5,878 bases of DNA from a virus. Taxonomy: Duplodnaviria > Heunggongvirae > Uroviricota > Caudoviricetes. Where the stretch lies: IMG/VR virus record IMGVR_UViG_2531839473_000007, one strand, 5' to 3'. This document shows, piece after piece, positions 44 to 5,878 of this stretch (positions are counted from its first letter, which is position 1; each line of letters starts with the position of its first letter). The position numbers and the translations under genes were made by a program. The notes below the pieces were generated by a model. The model worked only from the letters and a program-made list of their open reading frames with translations, made no database searches and was not told the origin of the DNA.

Positions 44-1930
44 GTGTACGGGGAGATACCGTTTAACCCGAACACCCGTGAGGTGACGACGGCGTGCATC
101 AGCCTGTTCCGCTACCAGGCGCAGGTGCGGCCCTCGCAGGTGCGTTCAAAAGACCACACGTTTAAGGTGCCGGACTGGCCGGGTATTTACATTGAGGATG
201 CTGAAAACCTCAACGGGCAACTGAAGCAGTACAAAATCCTGGACTGGCCGGGGCGCTACAAGGACGAGCAGCATGGTCAGGACTTTACCCGCTACCGGCT
301 GGAAGGGCTGCGTAACAGTGCTGAAACCGCCACAGGTATCAGTAACTCCCCGGCGCTGTGGCCGGGACGGCGGTTCACCCTGACGGGGCATCCGGTACAG
401 GGAGCGAACCCGAACCGTGAGTGGCAGGTGGTGAGCAGCACGCTGACGGGGAGCCAGCCGCAGGCGCTGCACGGCAGTCACGGTGAAGGAACGACGCTGA
501 GTAACCAGTTTGAGGTGATACCGGCAGACAGGACGTGGCGTCACGCGCCGCTGCCGAAGCCGAAGGTGGACGGCCCGCAGAGTGCCATCGTGACCGGGCC
601 GAAGGGCGAGGAGATATTCTGCGACGAACATGGCCGGGTACGGGTGAAGTTTCACTGGGACCGTTATCACGGTATGACGGAGGAGAGTTCATGCTGGATA
701 CGGGTGTCGCAGGCGTGGGCGGGAGCGGGGTTCGGTAATCTGGCGATACCGCGTGTGGGTCAGGAAGTGATAGTGGACTTTCTGAACGGGGACCCGGACC
801 AGCCCATCGTCACGGGACGCACCTACCATGAGGACAACCGTTCACCGGGGGATTTACCGGGCACGAAGACGCAGATGACGATACGGTCGAAGACCTATAA
901 AGGAAGCGGATTTAACGAGCTGCGGTTTGAAGACGCCACGGGCGGTGAGCAGGTGTATATCCATGTGCAGAAGAACATGGACACGGAGGTGCTTCACGAC
1001 CGGACGACGGACGTGAAGCATGACCACACGGAGACCATCGGGAACAACCAGAAAATCACGGTGGGGCTGGGCCAGACGGTGACGGTGGGGAAAGAGAATG
1101 CCGGAGGGCATGACCAGACCATCACGGTGGCCCATGACCGGAGCATCACGGTGCGCAACGACCAGACGCTGAAGGTGACGAACGACCGGCGGGTGAACGT
1201 CAGCCACGATGACGGTCTGTACGTCAGAAACGACCGAAAGGTGACGGTGGAAGGGAAGCAGGAGCACAAAACGACAGGAAACCACATCAGCCTGGTGGAG
1301 GGAAAACACAGCCTGGAGGTGAAAGGCGACCTGGCGAGGAAGATTACCGGCGCGCTGGGAATGAAGGTCCGGGATGAAATCGTACTGGAGAGCGGCGGTA
1401 AAATCACCCTGAAGGTGGGCGGCTCGTTCGTTGTCGTTCATTCTGGTGGCGTGGATATTGCCGGGCCGAAGATAAACCTGAACGGCGGGGGCAGTGCGGG
1501 GACACCGGTGGGGACGATGCAGCCGGGTGTACTGGCGGCGCTGGCGGATGACGGGGGTGATGAAGAAGGCGAAGATGACGGGCAGGGCAATGGCGACTCC
1601 GGTGATGGAGAGGGGGGGGCCGGAGATGATGATAGTGGAAACGATTCGGACAATTCAGATGATGATGAAAAGGAAATTGTTTCTATTAGTTGGTCCTATG
1701 GTAACAATCGGACAAAAGTTCAGGATACATCCAGACACTATGTAGACCTCAATCTCCATGTGCAGACAAAAGGGTATAGTCCTGGGGAAAGTGTGTCCGT
1801 CGAAATAAAATATGATGACTTTGATGGTATGGAAAGATCTCTTGCTGTTAGCGGCACGGTAGATGAATCAGGTGAGATGGTTGTTGAGCAGGTTTTATCT
1901 GGGGCAGACGTCTGTACTTTAGATGAGTAG
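44..1930 (+). CDS. vgrG: T6SS spike protein VgrG (vgrG1), 3' portion with C-terminal extension. The open frame starts at GTG 44 after a TGA at 26-28, but the vgrG reading continues upstream in another frame (apparent 1-bp deletion near nt 30-32), so this is a frameshifted gene or a sequencing error.
   Basis: Translation carries VgrG core motifs (FKVPDWPGIYIEDAENLNGQ, YKDEQHGQDFTRYRLEGLRNSAETATG, FHWDRYHG, gp5-like beta-helix repeats such as VKHDHTETIGNNQKITVGLGQTVTVG). It aligns residue-by-residue with the vgrG2 N-terminal region at 5509-5878. Stop TAG at 1928-1930. Confidence 0.9.
   Translation: MYGEIPFNPNTREVTTACISLFRYQAQVRPSQVRSKDHTFKVPDWPGIYIEDAENLNGQLKQYKILDWPGRYKDEQHGQDFTRYRLEGLRNSAETATGISNSPALWPGRRFTLTGHPVQGANPNREWQVVSSTLTGSQPQALHGSHGEGTTLSNQFEVIPADRTWRHAPLPKPKVDGPQSAIVTGPKGEEIFCDEHGRVRVKFHWDRYHGMTEESSCWIRVSQAWAGAGFGNLAIPRVGQEVIVDFLNGDPDQPIVTGRTYHEDNRSPGDLPGTKTQMTIRSKTYKGSGFNELRFEDATGGEQVYIHVQKNMDTEVLHDRTTDVKHDHTETIGNNQKITVGLGQTVTVGKENAGGHDQTITVAHDRSITVRNDQTLKVTNDRRVNVSHDDGLYVRNDRKVTVEGKQEHKTTGNHISLVEGKHSLEVKGDLARKITGALGMKVRDEIVLESGGKITLKVGGSFVVVHSGGVDIAGPKINLNGGGSAGTPVGTMQPGVLAALADDGGDEEGEDDGQGNGDSGDGEGGAGDDDSGNDSDNSDDDEKEIVSISWSYGNNRTKVQDTSRHYVDLNLHVQTKGYSPGESVSVEIKYDDFDGMERSLAVSGTVDESGEMVVEQVLSGADVCTLDE
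1547..1675 (+). other. Acidic low-complexity linker inside vgrG1 (D/E/G/S/N-rich, about 43 codons) between the VgrG core and the C-terminal domain; contains a G8 homopolymer.
   Basis: Translation ADDGGDEEGEDDGQGNGDSGDGEGGAGDDDSGNDSDNSDDDEK. Nucleotide composition switches from GC-rich to AT-rich within this segment. Confidence 0.8.
1612..1619 (+). repeat. G8 homopolymeric tract inside the vgrG1 coding sequence (codons GAG GGG GGG GCC).
   Basis: Eight consecutive G read directly at 1612-1619. Confidence 0.9.
1676..1927 (+). other. VgrG1 C-terminal extension domain of unknown function (about 84 aa, AT-rich); candidate cargo or adaptor-binding module.
   Basis: Translation KEIVSISWSYGNNRTKVQDTSRHYVDLNLHVQTKGYSPGESVSVEIKYDDFDGMERSLAVSGTVDESGEMVVEQVLSGADVCTLDE follows the gp5-like repeats and acidic linker. 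Its composition matches the downstream AT-rich cassette, not the vgrG core. Confidence 0.5.
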
Positions 1931-2095
1931 TTGTTTGGTAATATATGGCTGATGTTGTTGAATAAGAATTATATGATTAGCTGATCATTTAGATGACAGA
2001 ATACATACTACTATGTTGTATTCACTTAAAGTCTGGCGATTGTTTACATGACAGTTTTACGTGATACTTATTCGTTGAATCAGTAAGGGCTTATT

Positions 2096-2236
2096 ATGGC
2101 AAAAAAAGTTACAGCTAGTGCGGGAAAACAAAAATCGACTGTTAATGTAAAAAGACCTGCATGGTCTGATGTATATGAAGGATATCCAAAAGTTAATGGA
2201 GGTACTGAAATTGAGAGTGATTTGCCTATGAAATAA
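2096..2236 (+). other. N-terminal segment (46 codons) of the tae4-like effector gene, ending at an in-frame TAA (2234-2236) and continuing in the same frame as ORF 2237-2662.
   Basis: ATG at 2096 with Shine-Dalgarno TAAGGG at 2084-2089 (6-nt spacer). Translation MAKKVTASAGKQKSTVNVKRPAWSDVYEGYPKVNGGTEIESDLPMK. Same frame as the downstream catalytic ORF, separated only by TAA. Confidence 0.5.
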
Positions 2237-2662
2237 TTGTTTACATCAATTTTTGGGCCTGATTATGATACTACGCAATTCAATAATGGTTGTGCTACAA
2301 GAGTATCTCTTGGATTACTTTCTGAAGGATTAAAAAGAGTGGGGGAAAGAGATATTGTTATTAGTGAAAAATCTCATATCCATTATGGGAAATCAATAGA
2401 GCCCGGAGCTGCAAGATTAAAAGATTTTCTGATAAAAATATGGGGAAATGCAGATTATGTCATTAAATATCCTCTAAGCTTTGACGATGTAAGCTCGGTA
2501 TTAAATGATAAAAAAGGTGTTTATATAATGGTTTATAAAAGACCTGCGGATCATGGTGGTGCTACGGGACATGCTACACTATGGACTGGTAACAGAGCCA
2601 TTGGCGGTAATGACCATGCTGATTCCAGTGCTTTTGCAATCTATTTTTGGGAATTGAAATAA
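2237..2662 (+). CDS. Tae4-like T6SS peptidoglycan amidase effector (papain-like Cys-His hydrolase), catalytic portion. Likely a pseudogene or disrupted gene, because the natural start and RBS lie upstream at 2096 beyond an in-frame TAA.
   Basis: Motifs NNGCATRVSLGL (candidate catalytic Cys) and GHATLWTGN (candidate catalytic His), followed by GGNDHAD, fit the Tae4-family pattern as recalled. Size and AT-rich composition suit an effector cassette. The only in-frame start before the Cys is TTG at 2237, with no RBS. Confidence 0.55.
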   Translation: MFTSIFGPDYDTTQFNNGCATRVSLGLLSEGLKRVGERDIVISEKSHIHYGKSIEPGAARLKDFLIKIWGNADYVIKYPLSFDDVSSVLNDKKGVYIMVYKRPADHGGATGHATLWTGNRAIGGNDHADSSAFAIYFWELK

Positions 2663-3096
2663 TGAAAGCTATATTTTTTATATTCTGTATTTTTTTTATG
2701 GGAAATTCATTGTTATATTCAGAGGCTAAAGCCAGTGAATCAGAAAGTACTCTGGATGATTATAAAATATTTACACTCGCTAAATGCATTACCAGTAATT
2801 ATGAAAAAATGGGGGTTGATTTTACAAAACTACCATTGAAAGATAACACTATGGGATTTATTGATATTGATGCTGGACTCGCTTTTTATCGAAATAAGGA
2901 TAGTGTTTTAGCATCTTTCATTAATAAAAAAACAGGGGGTTTTTACAGGCCAAAACAAACTAGTGGTGATTTAGCATCTTCAAATATGGTTATATACGAC
3001 TGCGTAAATTTTTATCATTCAAAAGAGTTGGGTGTATTTCTAAAAAAAATCATTCATGAGAGGACTGTCGAAATTGAGAGAAACGCACTCGAATAG
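2662..3096 (+). CDS. Periplasmic immunity protein candidate (Tai4-like by synteny) with an N-terminal signal peptide.
   Basis: ATG at 2662 overlaps the upstream stop (TAATG). Signal peptide MKAIFFIFCIFFMGNSLLYSEAKA, then a hydrophilic mature protein of about 120 aa. Sits immediately downstream of the amidase effector, as in effector-immunity pairs. The ORF-track start (TTG 2647) is less plausible than ATG 2662. Confidence 0.5.
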   Translation: MKAIFFIFCIFFMGNSLLYSEAKASESESTLDDYKIFTLAKCITSNYEKMGVDFTKLPLKDNTMGFIDIDAGLAFYRNKDSVLASFINKKTGGFYRPKQTSGDLASSNMVIYDCVNFYHSKELGVFLKKIIHERTVEIERNALE

Positions 3097-3271
3097 ATAA
3101 TTCTGGCGGTGACTTTGTTTTTTTTGGATGCAATGCAATATATAAAAATTGTATTTGTTCGAAAATAATATAAAATATCCGAGAAAAATATCATTCGCTA
3201 TTAAAGTGTCTAAGCGTTTTTACATAAGTACTTTACATCGTTTAGTTTAAAAACGCGGCTATCAATAAATG

Positions 3272-3331: not shown

Positions 3332-3616
3332 ATGCCCACAGCAGCCAGACTCAGCGATAAAGGCACCCAGCATGACGGTTATTATGAGACCGCCATTATT
3401 GCAGGCTCCTCCTCCGTCTTTATTGATGGTATGCCCGCCGCCCGTCAGGGCGATCCGCTGACACCGCATTCCAAACCCGACCATCCCCCTCACCCCCGTA
3501 AAATCGCAGGCGGCTCTGCCACTGTCTTTATTGACGGTAAACCTGCCGCCAGAACCGGCGATGCCATTGACTGTGGCGGCGTGGTTATCGGTGGCGGCAC
3601 GGTAAATATAGGCTGA
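3332..3616 (+). CDS. Stand-alone PAAR-domain protein (T6SS spike-sharpening tip), 94 aa.
   Basis: Three PAAR-type motifs (TAARLSD, PAARQGD, PAARTGD) with G/I-rich beta-strand spacers. Shine-Dalgarno AAGGAAA 6 nt before ATG 3332. Stop TGA at 3614-3616. The ORF-track upstream ATG at 3269 lacks an RBS, and the PAAR domain begins at Met 3332. Confidence 0.9.
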   Translation: MPTAARLSDKGTQHDGYYETAIIAGSSSVFIDGMPAARQGDPLTPHSKPDHPPHPRKIAGGSATVFIDGKPAARTGDAIDCGGVVIGGGTVNIG

Positions 3617-3705
3617 TTAATTATCAGGGAGGCTGTATGCCCTCAGAAGGATTACGTTTCACGCTGTCGGTGGCCGGCATTGTGGAGATGGCGACGGCGG
3701 TGGTC
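3612..3705 (+). repeat. Direct repeat copy 1 (about 94 bp, about 90 percent identical to 4898-4987): TGATTAAT junction, Shine-Dalgarno GGGAGG, and the first 23 codons of vgrG.
   Basis: Alignment by eye: gctgattaat..cagggagg..atgccctcagaaggattacgtttcacgctgtcggtggccggcattgtggagatggcgacggcggtggt versus the vgrG2 5' region. Confidence 0.9.
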
Positions 3706-4398
3706 GTAGAGGACGGCATATTTGGAAAAAATACATACGACGCAGTGAAAATATTTCAGCGGTATAATGGGTTAAATGATGATGGCATCGTAGGGCCACA
3801 AACCTGGCGGAAATTGGGTGTTCCTGAACTTTTAACGCGAAGTTCATCAGGCTCTCCCGCCAGCCCTTCTTCGGGGCCATCCCGGAGCCCTTCTGCTGAT
3901 TCAAATGGTACTGTTGCTGAGACTGGTGATGGATTCTGTTTCCCATTCCCTGCACTTCCTGCGAGATCGTGGACAAACGGCGGTCGTCAATTTGGGGCGT
4001 CACGCAGTGGGGGCCGCAGACATGCCGGTTGTGATTTGATATTCCCCCGAGGAACGCTTATTTATGCTGTTGCTGATGGCATATTAGTTCAGCCCCCATA
4101 TCCATTTTACGAAGGTACTTCTGCTGTAGAAATTAGACATGGCAACCTTCTCCTTCGCTATGGTGAAATTATTAATGGGTCATACGTAGGTGGGCAAACG
4201 GTTCAAAAAGGTCAGGTTATTGCTAAGGTAGGAAGGCTGCATTCGGGTTCATCTATGTTGCATCTGGAGATTTATACGAATGCGACCTTATCGGGTGACC
4301 TTACAGATCGCAACAGAGCGCCTTATCAAAGACGTTCTGATGTGACAGATCCTGCCCCATATCTGGATATCTGGAAAAATAACCTGCCTACCCTCTGA
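3637..4398 (+). CDS. Chimeric putative T6SS effector: vgrG-derived N-terminus (23 aa), then a partial peptidoglycan-binding (PG_binding_1-like) motif, a Ser/Pro-rich linker and an M23/LytM-like peptidase domain.
   Basis: N-terminus MPSEGLRFTLSVAGIVEMATAVV matches the vgrG2 start MSSEGLRFTLSVDGIVEMATAVV. DGIFGKNTYDAVKIFQRYNGLNDDGIVGPQTWRKLG matches the second half of the PG_binding_1 consensus. M23-like blocks: HAGCD (HxxxD), GTLIYAVADGILV, VEIRHGNLLLRYGEI, GQTVQKGQVIAKVG, SMLHLEIY, VTDPAPYL. Shine-Dalgarno GGGAGG precedes ATG 3637. Confidence 0.75.
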   Translation: MPSEGLRFTLSVAGIVEMATAVVVEDGIFGKNTYDAVKIFQRYNGLNDDGIVGPQTWRKLGVPELLTRSSSGSPASPSSGPSRSPSADSNGTVAETGDGFCFPFPALPARSWTNGGRQFGASRSGGRRHAGCDLIFPRGTLIYAVADGILVQPPYPFYEGTSAVEIRHGNLLLRYGEIINGSYVGGQTVQKGQVIAKVGRLHSGSSMLHLEIYTNATLSGDLTDRNRAPYQRRSDVTDPAPYLDIWKNNLPTL

Positions 4399-4417: not shown

Positions 4418-4882
4418 ATGTTCAAAAAGATAATACTATTTTTAACGGTGATATCTTCGAGTTTTGTTGTTTGTCTTGCGGCTGATTCAGAAAAGATATT
4501 ATCAGTAGATCCTGTTGTGAATAATTTTGGCGTTGATGAAGTCGTAGGGTTGCCTCATCCTGTTTGTACTTTGAGTCTGGCTGAAAATAATGAGAAACAT
4601 CTTTATAATTATGTTGAGGGCGGTATCTGCCCTGTGGGCGGTGAAAGTTGTCCTTATTCAGCCGTCATAAAACTGAATGGCAAGATGGCGATATTAAAAC
4701 AGATATCGACAAATAAAAATATCAGTTTTTTTAAGAATGATGAGGTATCGATTATCACAACACAAAGCCCAGTTAAAGGAGCTGTGGTGGATGAAGAGGG
4801 TGGTGATGTGAATGCCGTTATTGTAATCAAAACAAAAAATAGCGAAATAAAACTTAATATGTCCGGGTACTGTGGTATTTAA
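4418..4882 (+). CDS. Putative periplasmic immunity protein for the M23-like effector (secreted, Cys-containing, no family recognised).
   Basis: Signal peptide MFKKIILFLTVISSSFVVCLA followed by ADSEK. Four Cys in the mature part (C50, C71, C78, C152). Shine-Dalgarno AAGGA 9 nt before ATG 4418. AT-rich. Immediately downstream of the effector. Confidence 0.5.
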   Translation: MFKKIILFLTVISSSFVVCLAADSEKILSVDPVVNNFGVDEVVGLPHPVCTLSLAENNEKHLYNYVEGGICPVGGESCPYSAVIKLNGKMAILKQISTNKNISFFKNDEVSIITTQSPVKGAVVDEEGGDVNAVIVIKTKNSEIKLNMSGYCGI

Positions 4883-4897
4883 AACCGGGCTATTATC

Positions 4898-4987
4898 GCT
4901 GATTAATCAAGGGAGGTCATATGTCCTCAGAAGGATTACGTTTCACGCTGTCGGTGGACGGTATTGTGGAGATGGCGACGGCAGTGG
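4898..4987 (+). repeat. Direct repeat copy 2: the authentic vgrG2 translation-initiation region and first 23 codons.
   Basis: Same alignment as copy 1; gctgattaat at 4898-4907, GGGAGG at 4911-4916, ATG at 4921. Confidence 0.9.
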
Positions 4988-5878
4988 TGAGCTTCCGTCT
5001 GTACCAGCACCACTGCACACCGTTCATCCTGGATGTGGATATCGCCAGCGGACTGTCTGACCTGACGGCGGAGGATTTTCTGGAGAAAAGCGCGGTGCTG
5101 ACGGTCTGGCAGGGCGACACTGCACAGCGTTACGTCAGCGGTATCGTGACGGAGGTGCAGCTCGGTGAGAACAACGACTGGCAGATGCGTTATTCCCTGA
5201 GCATCAGCCCGCCGCTGTGGCGGGCAGGGTTACGGCAGAACTTCCGTATCTTCCAGCAGCAGGACATCGGGACGATATCAGCACAGCTTCTTGAAGAGAA
5301 CGGGGTGACGGCGTGGATGCCGCTGTTCTATGAGGCGCACCCGGCGCGGGAGTTCTGCGTGCAGTACGGGGAGAGCGACCTGGCGTTCCTGACCCGGCTG
5401 TGGGCGGAGGAAGGTATCTTCTTTTATGAGCGCTGCAGTCAGGAAGGGCCGGAACAGAAGCTGGCGGTGTGTGATGACGTGGCGGGGCTGACGGGAATGG
5501 GGGCGCTGGCGTTTAACCCGGACACGACGACCGGGGGAACGACGGAGTACATCAGCGAGTTTCGTTACCGTGCGCAGATAAGCGTGGCGTCGGTGGAGAC
5601 GCAGGATTATACGTTCAAAACGCCGGGGTGGCCGGGGTACTACAGCCATGCCGGGGAGAGCCTGAACGGGCAGGGAACGCAGTACGAGATATTTGATTAT
5701 CCGGGGCGTTTCAAGGATGAGCAGCACGGCCAGGACTTTGCGCGTTACCAGACGGAAGGGTGGCGGAACGGGGCGGAGACGGCGAGCGGGGTGTGTAACA
5801 CGGCGCGACTGTGGCCGGGAACGCGGTTCCGGCTGACGGGCCATCCCTCAGGGACGCTGAACCGGGAATGGCAGGTTG
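4921..5878 (+). CDS. vgrG: T6SS spike protein VgrG (vgrG2), N-terminal about 319 codons; 3' end beyond the window.
   Basis: Open frame from ATG 4921 to the window end with no stop (translated by hand). Begins MSSEGLRFTLSVDGIVEMATAVVSFRLYQ and continues with VgrG core motifs (TFKTPGWPGYY, FKDEQHGQDFARYQTEGWRNGAETASG). Strong Shine-Dalgarno AAGGGAGG. Confidence 0.92.
   Translation, partial: MSSEGLRFTLSVDGIVEMATAVVSFRLYQHHCTPFILDVDIASGLSDLTAEDFLEKSAVLTVWQGDTAQRYVSGIVTEVQLGENNDWQMRYSLSISPPLWRAGLRQNFRIFQQQDIGTISAQLLEENGVTAWMPLFYEAHPAREFCVQYGESDLAFLTRLWAEEGIFFYERCSQEGPEQKLAVCDDVAGLTGMGALAFNPDTTTGGTTEYISEFRYRAQISVASVETQDYTFKTPGWPGYYSHAGESLNGQGTQYEIFDYPGRFKDEQHGQDFARYQTEGWRNGAETASGVCNTARLWPGTRFRLTGHPSGTLNREWQV

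Follow-up and report, generated by a model that had tools for sequence, protein, structure and literature searches.

The window analysed here, a stretch of 5,878 nucleotides filed as IMG/VR virus record IMGVR_UViG_2531839473_000007, holds, by its open reading frames (ORFs) and Pfam matches, a type VI secretion system (T6SS) vgrG island of Escherichia type. Its first vgrG gene ends in an acidic linker and a small immunoglobulin (Ig)-like domain, and the next gene encodes a Tae4-like peptidoglycan amidase. Our best reading is that the Ig-like domain is probably a Tae4-specific cargo-docking domain, which is borne on a cassette and loads the amidase onto the projectile while tethered to a carrier. 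An earlier interpretation made from the letters of the window (the sequence-only reading) had proposed a dedicated cargo-loading module at this site, and gene linkage, protein fusions and the distribution of the domain over carriers now lend that proposal support. The loading of small T6SS cargo effectors is understood for a few pairs only, and Tae4-type amidases are textbook Hcp-type cargo. The domain family described below, which comprises 137 protein clusters, would mark a second, carrier-tethered route for one Tae4 subfamily and offers a sequence marker for finding such effectors. Carrier-appended, effector-specific docking domains are a known kind of element; new here are an undescribed domain family, the strictness with which it pairs with a Tae4 subfamily and its apparent use on every carrier class.

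The pairing with Tae4 was evident from genomic context. A Pfam Tae4 gene lay beside the domain gene in all of the first four contexts that we looked up (Salmonella Mississippi, Salmonella Omuna, Massilia and Apibacter). An independent pattern scan of one genome per species, covering 100,044 species, returned 27 loci. The proteobacterial loci came from Enterobacterales, Pasteurellaceae, Acinetobacter, Pseudomonas, Halopseudomonas, Oxalobacteraceae, Chitiniphilus, Hydrogenophaga, Helicobacter and Arcobacter, and the remainder from Apibacter and Fibrobacterota. A locally built Tae4 hidden Markov model (HMM) detected a Tae4-like gene next to the domain gene in 26 of these loci; at the remaining one, in Duganella callida, the contig ends on the side where relatives have tae4. 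Of 24 neighbouring proteins, 22 matched Pfam Tae4 at E ≤ 0.001; an insertion sequence (IS) element had truncated one of the remaining two. In all canonical loci open to assessment, a Tae4 gene adjoins the domain gene, so that the co-occurrence in related genomes to which the sequence-only reading had tied its proposal is near-absolute, and the fusions described below extend it. The tae4 gene mostly lies directly 3′ of the domain gene, often overlapping it by a few bases, and the order in Oxalobacteraceae is tae4, immunity gene, PAAR–domain gene. Tae4 also follows a LysM–domain protein, a TssD–domain protein and a domain gene on a Helicobacter cinaedi plasmid. The linkage thus spans Gamma-, Beta- and Epsilonproteobacteria, Bacteroidota and Fibrobacterota.

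The reverse comparison gave the same result. We picked Tae4 homologues with an N-terminal extension by a Tae4 profile (from Escherichia sp. E4385, Yersinia rohdei, Intestinirhabdus alba and one metagenome), and the upstream gene ended in the domain in four of four cases (HMM E values of 1e-35 to 9e-27). Across 5,426 complete E. coli genomes the vgrG core is present in 1,095, the domain in one and the tae4 cassette in that same one only. The whole stretch likewise occurs in a single one of these genomes, strain MFDS1022581 (L001), at 99.97% identity, and a related copy of the island is present in the draft genome of Escherichia sp. E4385 (L034).

Four proteins carry the domain and Tae4 in a single chain: P0092 and P0097 (domain–Tae4), P0111 (DUF4280–domain–Tae4) and P0131 (X–domain–Tae4). 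The order in these fusions, carrier then domain then Tae4, is the gene order of the split loci. All partner amidases share a conserved N-terminal extension of 17–20 residues before an RPxW motif, which reads MAKKVTASAGKQKSTVNVKRPAW in the window and has the consensus x-I-T-A-x-A-G-x5-I-x-V-x-RPxW. Salmonella Tae4 lacks this extension, its native chain starting MNRPSF; an apparent match in the PDB upstream of MNRPSF was rejected as an extension because it is the expression tag of the crystallised construct. In the fusions the extension begins 5–15 residues after the domain, and in the AlphaFold model of P0111 it forms a β-hairpin (strands 178–182 and 185–191) with a predicted local distance difference test (pLDDT) score of 79–94. 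The C-terminal FWELK of the window amidase was also considered as a motif specific to the subfamily, and was rejected because Serratia Ssp1 ends in FWEL.

The Tae4 part of P0111 (residues 235–348) has itself lost both catalytic residues, with NGGAARVS in place of NACATRVS and GASGAATLW in place of G.SGHATLW, which suggests an inactive or repurposed amidase.

We determined the extent of the domain family with an exhaustive HMMER search of 1.84 billion cluster representatives, which returned 137 proteins (clusters) at E ≤ 0.001, 30 of them at E ≤ 1e-10. A word-index protein search with the single domain sequence gave no matches; the corresponding search with a profile gave 18 proteins, all of them short and free of carrier domains, so short stand-alone forms of the domain exist. 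Family members share the motif I..I.WSYG......SRHYVDLNLHV.T..Y..GE.V., in which W9, Y11, G12, S22, D27, N29, L30, H31, T34, Y37 and G40 are nearly invariant, and in most of them no more than about 10 residues separate the end of the domain from the C terminus. A Pfam scan of 133 cluster representatives for families preceding the domain identified PAAR in 23, DUF2345 (VgrG) in 9, DUF4280 (PAAR-like) in 8, TssD (the Bacteroidota-type Hcp) in 5, and LysM, Gp5_trimer_C and Tae4 in 4 each. The family is spread over at least five bacterial phyla or classes. We found no description of the domain in the searchable literature, and no entry for it in Pfam or NCBIfam.

Several individual loci show unusual arrangements. 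The VgrG proteins of I. alba and Y. rohdei (L036 2247–4997 and L038 2187–4997) carry DUF2345, a transthyretin (TTR)-like segment and the Ig-like domain in tandem, with Tae4, then an immunity-like gene, then a Lipase_3 effector downstream; the tandem may represent two docking modules for two cargos on one spike. A three-gene cassette (L042 5001–6445) encoding a LysM–LysM–domain protein, Tae4 and a weakly Tai4-like protein lies among NADH dehydrogenase (nuo) genes and beside an Imm41 gene, far from T6SS genes in a 10-kb view. The 23-kb H. cinaedi plasmid pHci1 (L047) carries several Tae4-family genes, one of them encoding 851 amino acids, and has one Ig-like-domain gene directly upstream of a 266-amino-acid Tae4. 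In Massilia sp. PAMC28688 (L005 3397–6435) an IS66 element (TnpB and transposase) appears to have split a PAAR–domain gene into a 79-amino-acid PAAR ORF and a 144-amino-acid domain ORF.

In the window, reading frame 2 of the vgrG gene runs from ...PGVLAALA through the linker, DDGGDEEGEDDGQGNGDSGDGEGGAGDDDSGNDSDNSDDDE, into KEIVSISWSYG...CTLDE. The linker (nucleotides 1547–1669) is as acidic as the sequence-only reading had it, with 39 of its residues being D, E, G, S or N (D15, G12, E5, S4, N3, Q1 and A1); its length is 41 residues, not about 43. Similar acidic linkers occur in paralogous vgrG tails and in remote homologues. The domain that follows measures 86–87 amino acids (nucleotides 1667/1670–1927) rather than the 84 first estimated, and is indeed unrecognised: its best scores were E = 0.14 against Pfam and E = 0.087 against NCBIfam, neither significant, and a sequence search of the PDB gave no match. 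Two other genomes encode an identical linker and domain; this identity and the 137 homologous clusters show that they are not a chance reading frame.

An AlphaFold2 model of the domain, at the C terminus of the ORF, is an Ig-like β-sandwich of five to six strands (pLDDT 85.8). A transthyretin-like or an Ig-like sandwich had been suggested as the fold to look for; the model bears out the Ig-like form, and neither the sequence searches nor the listed structural matches pointed to a TTR domain. Foldseek returned nothing from the PDB below E = 0.1, the top matches being Ruminococcus carbohydrate-binding modules (CBMs; probability 0.9, E = 0.18).

The window is laid out as follows, with all features on the plus strand.

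1–1546, +: vgrG core, with the C-terminal part of the gp27-like region, the oligonucleotide/oligosaccharide-binding (OB) fold and the gp5-like β-helix; the 5′ end lies outside the window.
1547–1669, +: acidic, Gly-rich flexible linker of 41 amino acids, the opening part of the exchangeable module (from composition and identity to L034).
1670–1930, +: C-terminal Ig-like domain of about 86 amino acids plus stop, proposed to dock Tae4; the vgrG stop codon is at 1928–1930 in frame 2.
2096–2236, +: 5′ part of the tae4-like gene, 46 codons and an in-frame TAA, aligning with the N termini of intact partner Tae4 proteins.
2237–2662, +: 3′ part of the tae4-like gene, 141 codons in the frame of the 5′ part, ending FWELK (Pfam Tae4).
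2662–3096, +: putative periplasmic immunity gene for the Tae4-like amidase, 144 amino acids with a hydrophobic, signal-like N terminus (ORF; coding sequence (CDS) 10663–11097 in L001).
3332–3616, +: PAAR protein gene, 94 amino acids, the start of the next cassette and outside the docking module (Pfam PAAR_motif 2e-20; annotated in L001).
3637–4398, +: effector gene with peptidoglycan-binding and M23 peptidase domains (Pfam Peptidase_M23 4.3e-13, PG_binding_1 1.7e-12).
4418–4882, +: putative immunity gene for the M23 effector, 154 amino acids with a signal-like N terminus (ORF; hypothetical protein in L001).
4921–5878, +: 5′ part of the next vgrG paralogue, 98.8% identical to the 5′ part of another L001 vgrG; the 3′ end lies outside the window.

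By its family matches, the product of the first vgrG gene has the hub, OB-fold and β-helix domains of a VgrG/TssI spike protein: Phage_GPD (1.5e-25), Phage_base_V (1.3e-14) and Gp5_trimer_C (3.7e-31) all scored above the Pfam cut-offs, and a full-length orthologue matched TIGR03361 at 3e-176 (587 bits; cut-off 186 bits). The downstream gene had been called tae4-like from its letters, and nucleotides 2237–2659 do match Pfam Tae4 (PF14113; 9.3e-14, 52 bits, cut-off 27). They encode a papain-like amidase domain whose catalytic Cys (NGCATRVS) and His (GHATLW) align with the nearly invariant C65 and H158 of the family alignment (A5), and sequence matches in the PDB were to Salmonella Tae4 and Serratia Ssp1. 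The start of the putative immunity ORF at 2662 overlaps the tae4 stop codon. Its product had no Pfam match; the ORF is 98% identical to its L034 counterpart, and the equivalent gene of L042 is a weak Tai4 match. No family match was found in Pfam or NCBIfam for the product of the 4418–4882 ORF.

Comparison with relatives placed the boundary of the module. Two paralogous vgrG genes of MFDS1022581 align with the window (84% identity) only as far as position 1551, and identity to Escherichia sp. E4385 leaps from 84% to 100% at position 1547. Measured against L034, the vgrG core is 77–90% identical and the β-helix 84%, the linker and domain 100%, the intergenic spacer 98%, tae4 97% and the immunity ORF 98%. 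From this jump it follows that linker, domain, tae4 and immunity gene form one cassette that has been exchanged onto different vgrG cores. The suggestion that the domain was acquired jointly with the AT-rich tae4 cassette is therefore supported (97–100% identity to E4385 for the cassette against 77–90% for the core), and the putative docking domain, its effector and the immunity gene travel as one recombination unit.

The sequence alignments put the true junction at the start of the linker, at about 1547–1551. A GC-to-AT break inside the linker, noted previously, is real: G+C content is 0.61 over 1–1546 and over 1547–1610, 0.48 over 1611–1675, 0.42 in the domain and 0.32 over 1931–3268. We rejected this break as the recombination junction in favour of the homology and identity breakpoints, which are the better marker. 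The compositional step probably mirrors amino-acid content, because the first half of the linker is rich in Gly and the second half in Asp, Asn and Ser.

Beyond 1551 the paralogous vgrG genes have the same core and different tails, in keeping with the expectation that paralogues with other downstream cargo would differ in their C termini. One MFDS1022581 paralogue (L001 3528–3827) has a short acidic linker and a β-rich segment of about 65 amino acids (YTLQFHFTDDDGIPYSETRYIAFFEDGTQTRGETDEDGYTETF...), followed by two hypothetical genes; this tail could itself be an uncharacterised docking module. In the other paralogue a short helical end comes after an acidic linker, and the genes downstream are DUF4123, DUF3304 and Tle1-like.

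Docking tails of VgrG proteins have precedents. C-terminal TTR or Ig-like regions of VgrG bind cargo by edge-strand contacts and set effector specificity (PMC11796386, citing Flaugnatti et al.). The TTR-like C-terminal domain of VgrG1 of enteroaggregative E. coli (EAEC) binds the phospholipase Tle1 (Flaugnatti et al. 2016/2020). In Acinetobacter baumannii, the TTR-like region of VgrG17 binds Tae17 (PMC11796386). The window domain resembles these two in being a small β-sandwich at the extreme C terminus of VgrG after the β-helix, in being tied to a downstream-encoded effector (here by gene linkage) and in that paralogous VgrGs bear different tails. It differs from them in having no sequence similarity and no TTR among the listed structural matches, and in its cargo, which is a small amidase of the Tae4 family where theirs is a large lipase or a multidomain hydrolase. 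A further difference is that PAAR, DUF4280, Hcp/TssD and LysM proteins carry it too, as do fusions with its effector, and a separate TTR-like segment precedes it in the VgrGs of Y. rohdei and Intestinirhabdus. Another close known system is the N-terminal Ig-like domain of BtaeB, a T6SS effector of Bacteroides fragilis (PDB 9jdh and 9jg8; Li et al. 2025, cited in PMC13402684). A VgrG-tethered adaptor, which the sequence-only reading had thought unusual, is thus unusual for Tae4 and not for the T6SS in general, since C-terminal docking domains of VgrG and PAAR proteins are a known concept.

Set beside classical Tae4 enzymes (Salmonella, Enterobacter and Serratia Ssp1/Ssp2), the window amidase shares the PF14113 domain, the catalytic Cys and His and, with Ssp1, the FWEL end. 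What separates its subfamily is the 17–20-residue N-terminal extension, which the classical enzymes lack, and a constant position beside a carrier that ends in the Ig-like domain. Serratia Ssp1 and Ssp2 have been treated as Hcp-type cargo without strict VgrG dependence (PMC4924876), and unfused Tae4 genes beside PAAR genes have been noted before (PMC6838775, PMC8651086); docking by a PAAR-borne domain would explain the latter. The bridging of a specific effector to VgrG or PAAR that we propose also recalls stand-alone adaptors and chaperones (DUF4123 Tap/Tec, DUF1795 Eag and DUF2169), whose genes lie between carrier and effector, as the domain-coding part does here. Those adaptors are separate proteins with unrelated folds, whereas here the adaptor would be a domain of the carrier; no Pfam match to DUF4123, DUF1795 or DUF2169 was found in the vgrG tail or the neighbouring ORFs of the window.

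In the mechanism that we propose, the Ig-like sandwich would hang from the blunt end of the VgrG β-helix by a flexible acidic tether of about 41 residues, so that a trimer would bear three copies. The domain would dock one subfamily of Tae4-type peptidoglycan amidases, encoded immediately downstream, onto the T6SS projectile. Capture would probably occur through the N-terminal hairpin of the amidase, by strand addition to the domain, and the amidase would then be fired together with the spike, unlike the Hcp-lumen route of classical Tae4/Ssp proteins. The anatomy of the domain, its fold class, the carriers that bear it, its gene linkage, the fusions and the limits of the cassette are observed; physical binding, the hairpin as binding element and delivery with the spike are what we infer. 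On this model the domain would serve as a carrier-independent socket on PAAR, DUF4280, Hcp/TssD and LysM proteins, covalently fused before Tae4 in some lineages, and the 17–20-residue extension of the partner amidases is its likely plug. The cassette of linker, domain, tae4 and immunity gene would recombine onto the conserved 3′ end of vgrG cores. More tentatively, and with some doubt on our part, evolution may have spread the socket to all classes of T6SS projectile component (VgrG, PAAR, DUF4280, Hcp/TssD and LysM proteins). The short N-terminal tag is indicated as a directly testable loading signal. If the model is true, adding a short transferable peptide tag would suffice for loading a protein onto the T6SS spike or tube, which would provide a defined loading signal for small cargo effectors and an engineering tool for the delivery of foreign proteins.

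Gene linkage and fusion also fit a co-acting accessory, and several further observations weigh against docking. The polar motif SRHYxDxNLH is highly conserved, which is unusual for a passive scaffold. The 720-amino-acid protein P0036 (L046 17–2179) has three divergent copies of the domain without the SRHY..NLH motif, followed by a C-terminal region of 290 amino acids, and has no Tae4 neighbour; its next genes give faint HEAT and Peptidase_M15_4 matches. P0134 is a predicted lipoprotein with the domain at its N terminus and no T6SS context. The P0111 fusion model has a predicted template modelling (pTM) score of only 0.63, too low to place the hairpin against the domain rather than the amidase body, and comes with no contact map. 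With tae4 and vgrG both broken in the window, this copy is uninformative on activity.

The first rival reading is an accessory function, in which the domain would be delivered with the amidase into the target periplasm and there bind peptidoglycan or the envelope to position the enzyme, or activate it, with no part in loading. The polar motif could then be a ligand site, LysM peptidoglycan-binding repeats accompany the domain in some members, and strict Tae4 linkage and fusion fit a functional partnership of any type. The Ig-like/CBM-like sandwich is shared with carbohydrate-binding modules, as the Ruminococcus hits of the Foldseek search illustrate, but those matches are not significant, and classical Tae4 enzymes (PDB entries) work without the domain. 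The domain nearly always sits at the C-terminal end of a projectile component with a flexible linker before it, an arrangement known from docking domains, and an N-terminal extension specific to the partner amidases is more easily read as a docking tag. We consider an accessory function unlikely.

A role unrelated to cargo, whether as a cap, a PAAR-binding surface or a spacer of the spike, or no role at all in a tail left over from a decaying island, would suit the damage to vgrG, tae4 and the M23 effector gene in the window and the rarity of the island (1 of 5,426 E. coli genomes). We regard this as very improbable. The domain is conserved over five phyla or classes with invariant residues, vgrG and tae4 are intact in Escherichia sp. 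E4385, decay of the window copy says nothing about the function of the family, and a VgrG-specific structural role is ruled out because the domain is also carried by PAAR, DUF4280, Hcp/TssD and LysM proteins. Least credence goes to the idea that the domain is a small toxin, an evolved VgrG or PAAR effector domain with Tae4 merely as a frequent neighbour. Many of the C-terminal extensions on VgrG, PAAR and Hcp proteins are toxins, and the invariant His, Asp, Asn and Arg could be catalytic; yet the domain has only about 85 amino acids in a plain Ig-like sandwich and matches no toxin family in Pfam or NCBIfam, and usually one small immunity-like gene, not two, follows tae4. Near-absolute linkage to one effector family, and fusions ahead of that effector, would also be unexpected of a toxin. 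Tae4-specific docking remains the reading that we prefer.

The copy of the system in the window is probably non-functional, to judge by its in-frame tae4 stop and its vgrG frame break. Relative to E. coli MFDS1022581, the vgrG gene has a 1-bp deletion near position 31 (one G of GTGGCGGG, within 25–45), which shifts the frame and leaves the vgrG frame with a stop ahead of codon 44; the deletion reflects either a genuine pseudogenising event or an error in sequencing. The tae4-like gene has an in-frame TAA at 2234–2236, with a TTG right after it. An intact orthologue (P0152, 188 amino acids, L034) reads PMTDLF where the window reads PMK*LF, with Asp at the site of the stop. The underlying bases, ACTGAT in L034 and AAATAA in the window, differ at four of six positions, a dense cluster for sequences that are about 97% identical. 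The tae4 gene of MFDS1022581 has the identical stop, and in RefSeq the gene appears as two distinct CDSs, of 46 and 141 amino acids. Intact copies of both vgrG and tae4 are present in Escherichia sp. E4385, and the cassettes of Y. rohdei and I. alba are intact as well.

The M23 effector gene is damaged as well. Its 5′ end is chimeric, the first ~20 codons deriving from a vgrG start (MPSEGLRFTLSVAGIVEMATAVV), and window positions 3612–3704 match vgrG 5′ ends (compare 4898–4988). Relative to Escherichia sp. E4385, about 444 bp are gone, a stretch that there holds a vgrG fragment of 121 amino acids together with the original 5′ end of the M23 gene, and the peptidoglycan-binding domain of the effector is N-terminally truncated as a result. 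Together, the damage to vgrG, tae4 and the M23 effector gene indicates that the island is eroding in this lineage, and because the cassette is decaying, the finding is an ordinary one for this particular genome. Mobile elements crowd the L001 island (5495–6723, 14521–16485 and 22723–24045), with IS2, an IS21 inside the third vgrG and an ISAs1 remnant, and a group II intron follows its Tle1-like gene.

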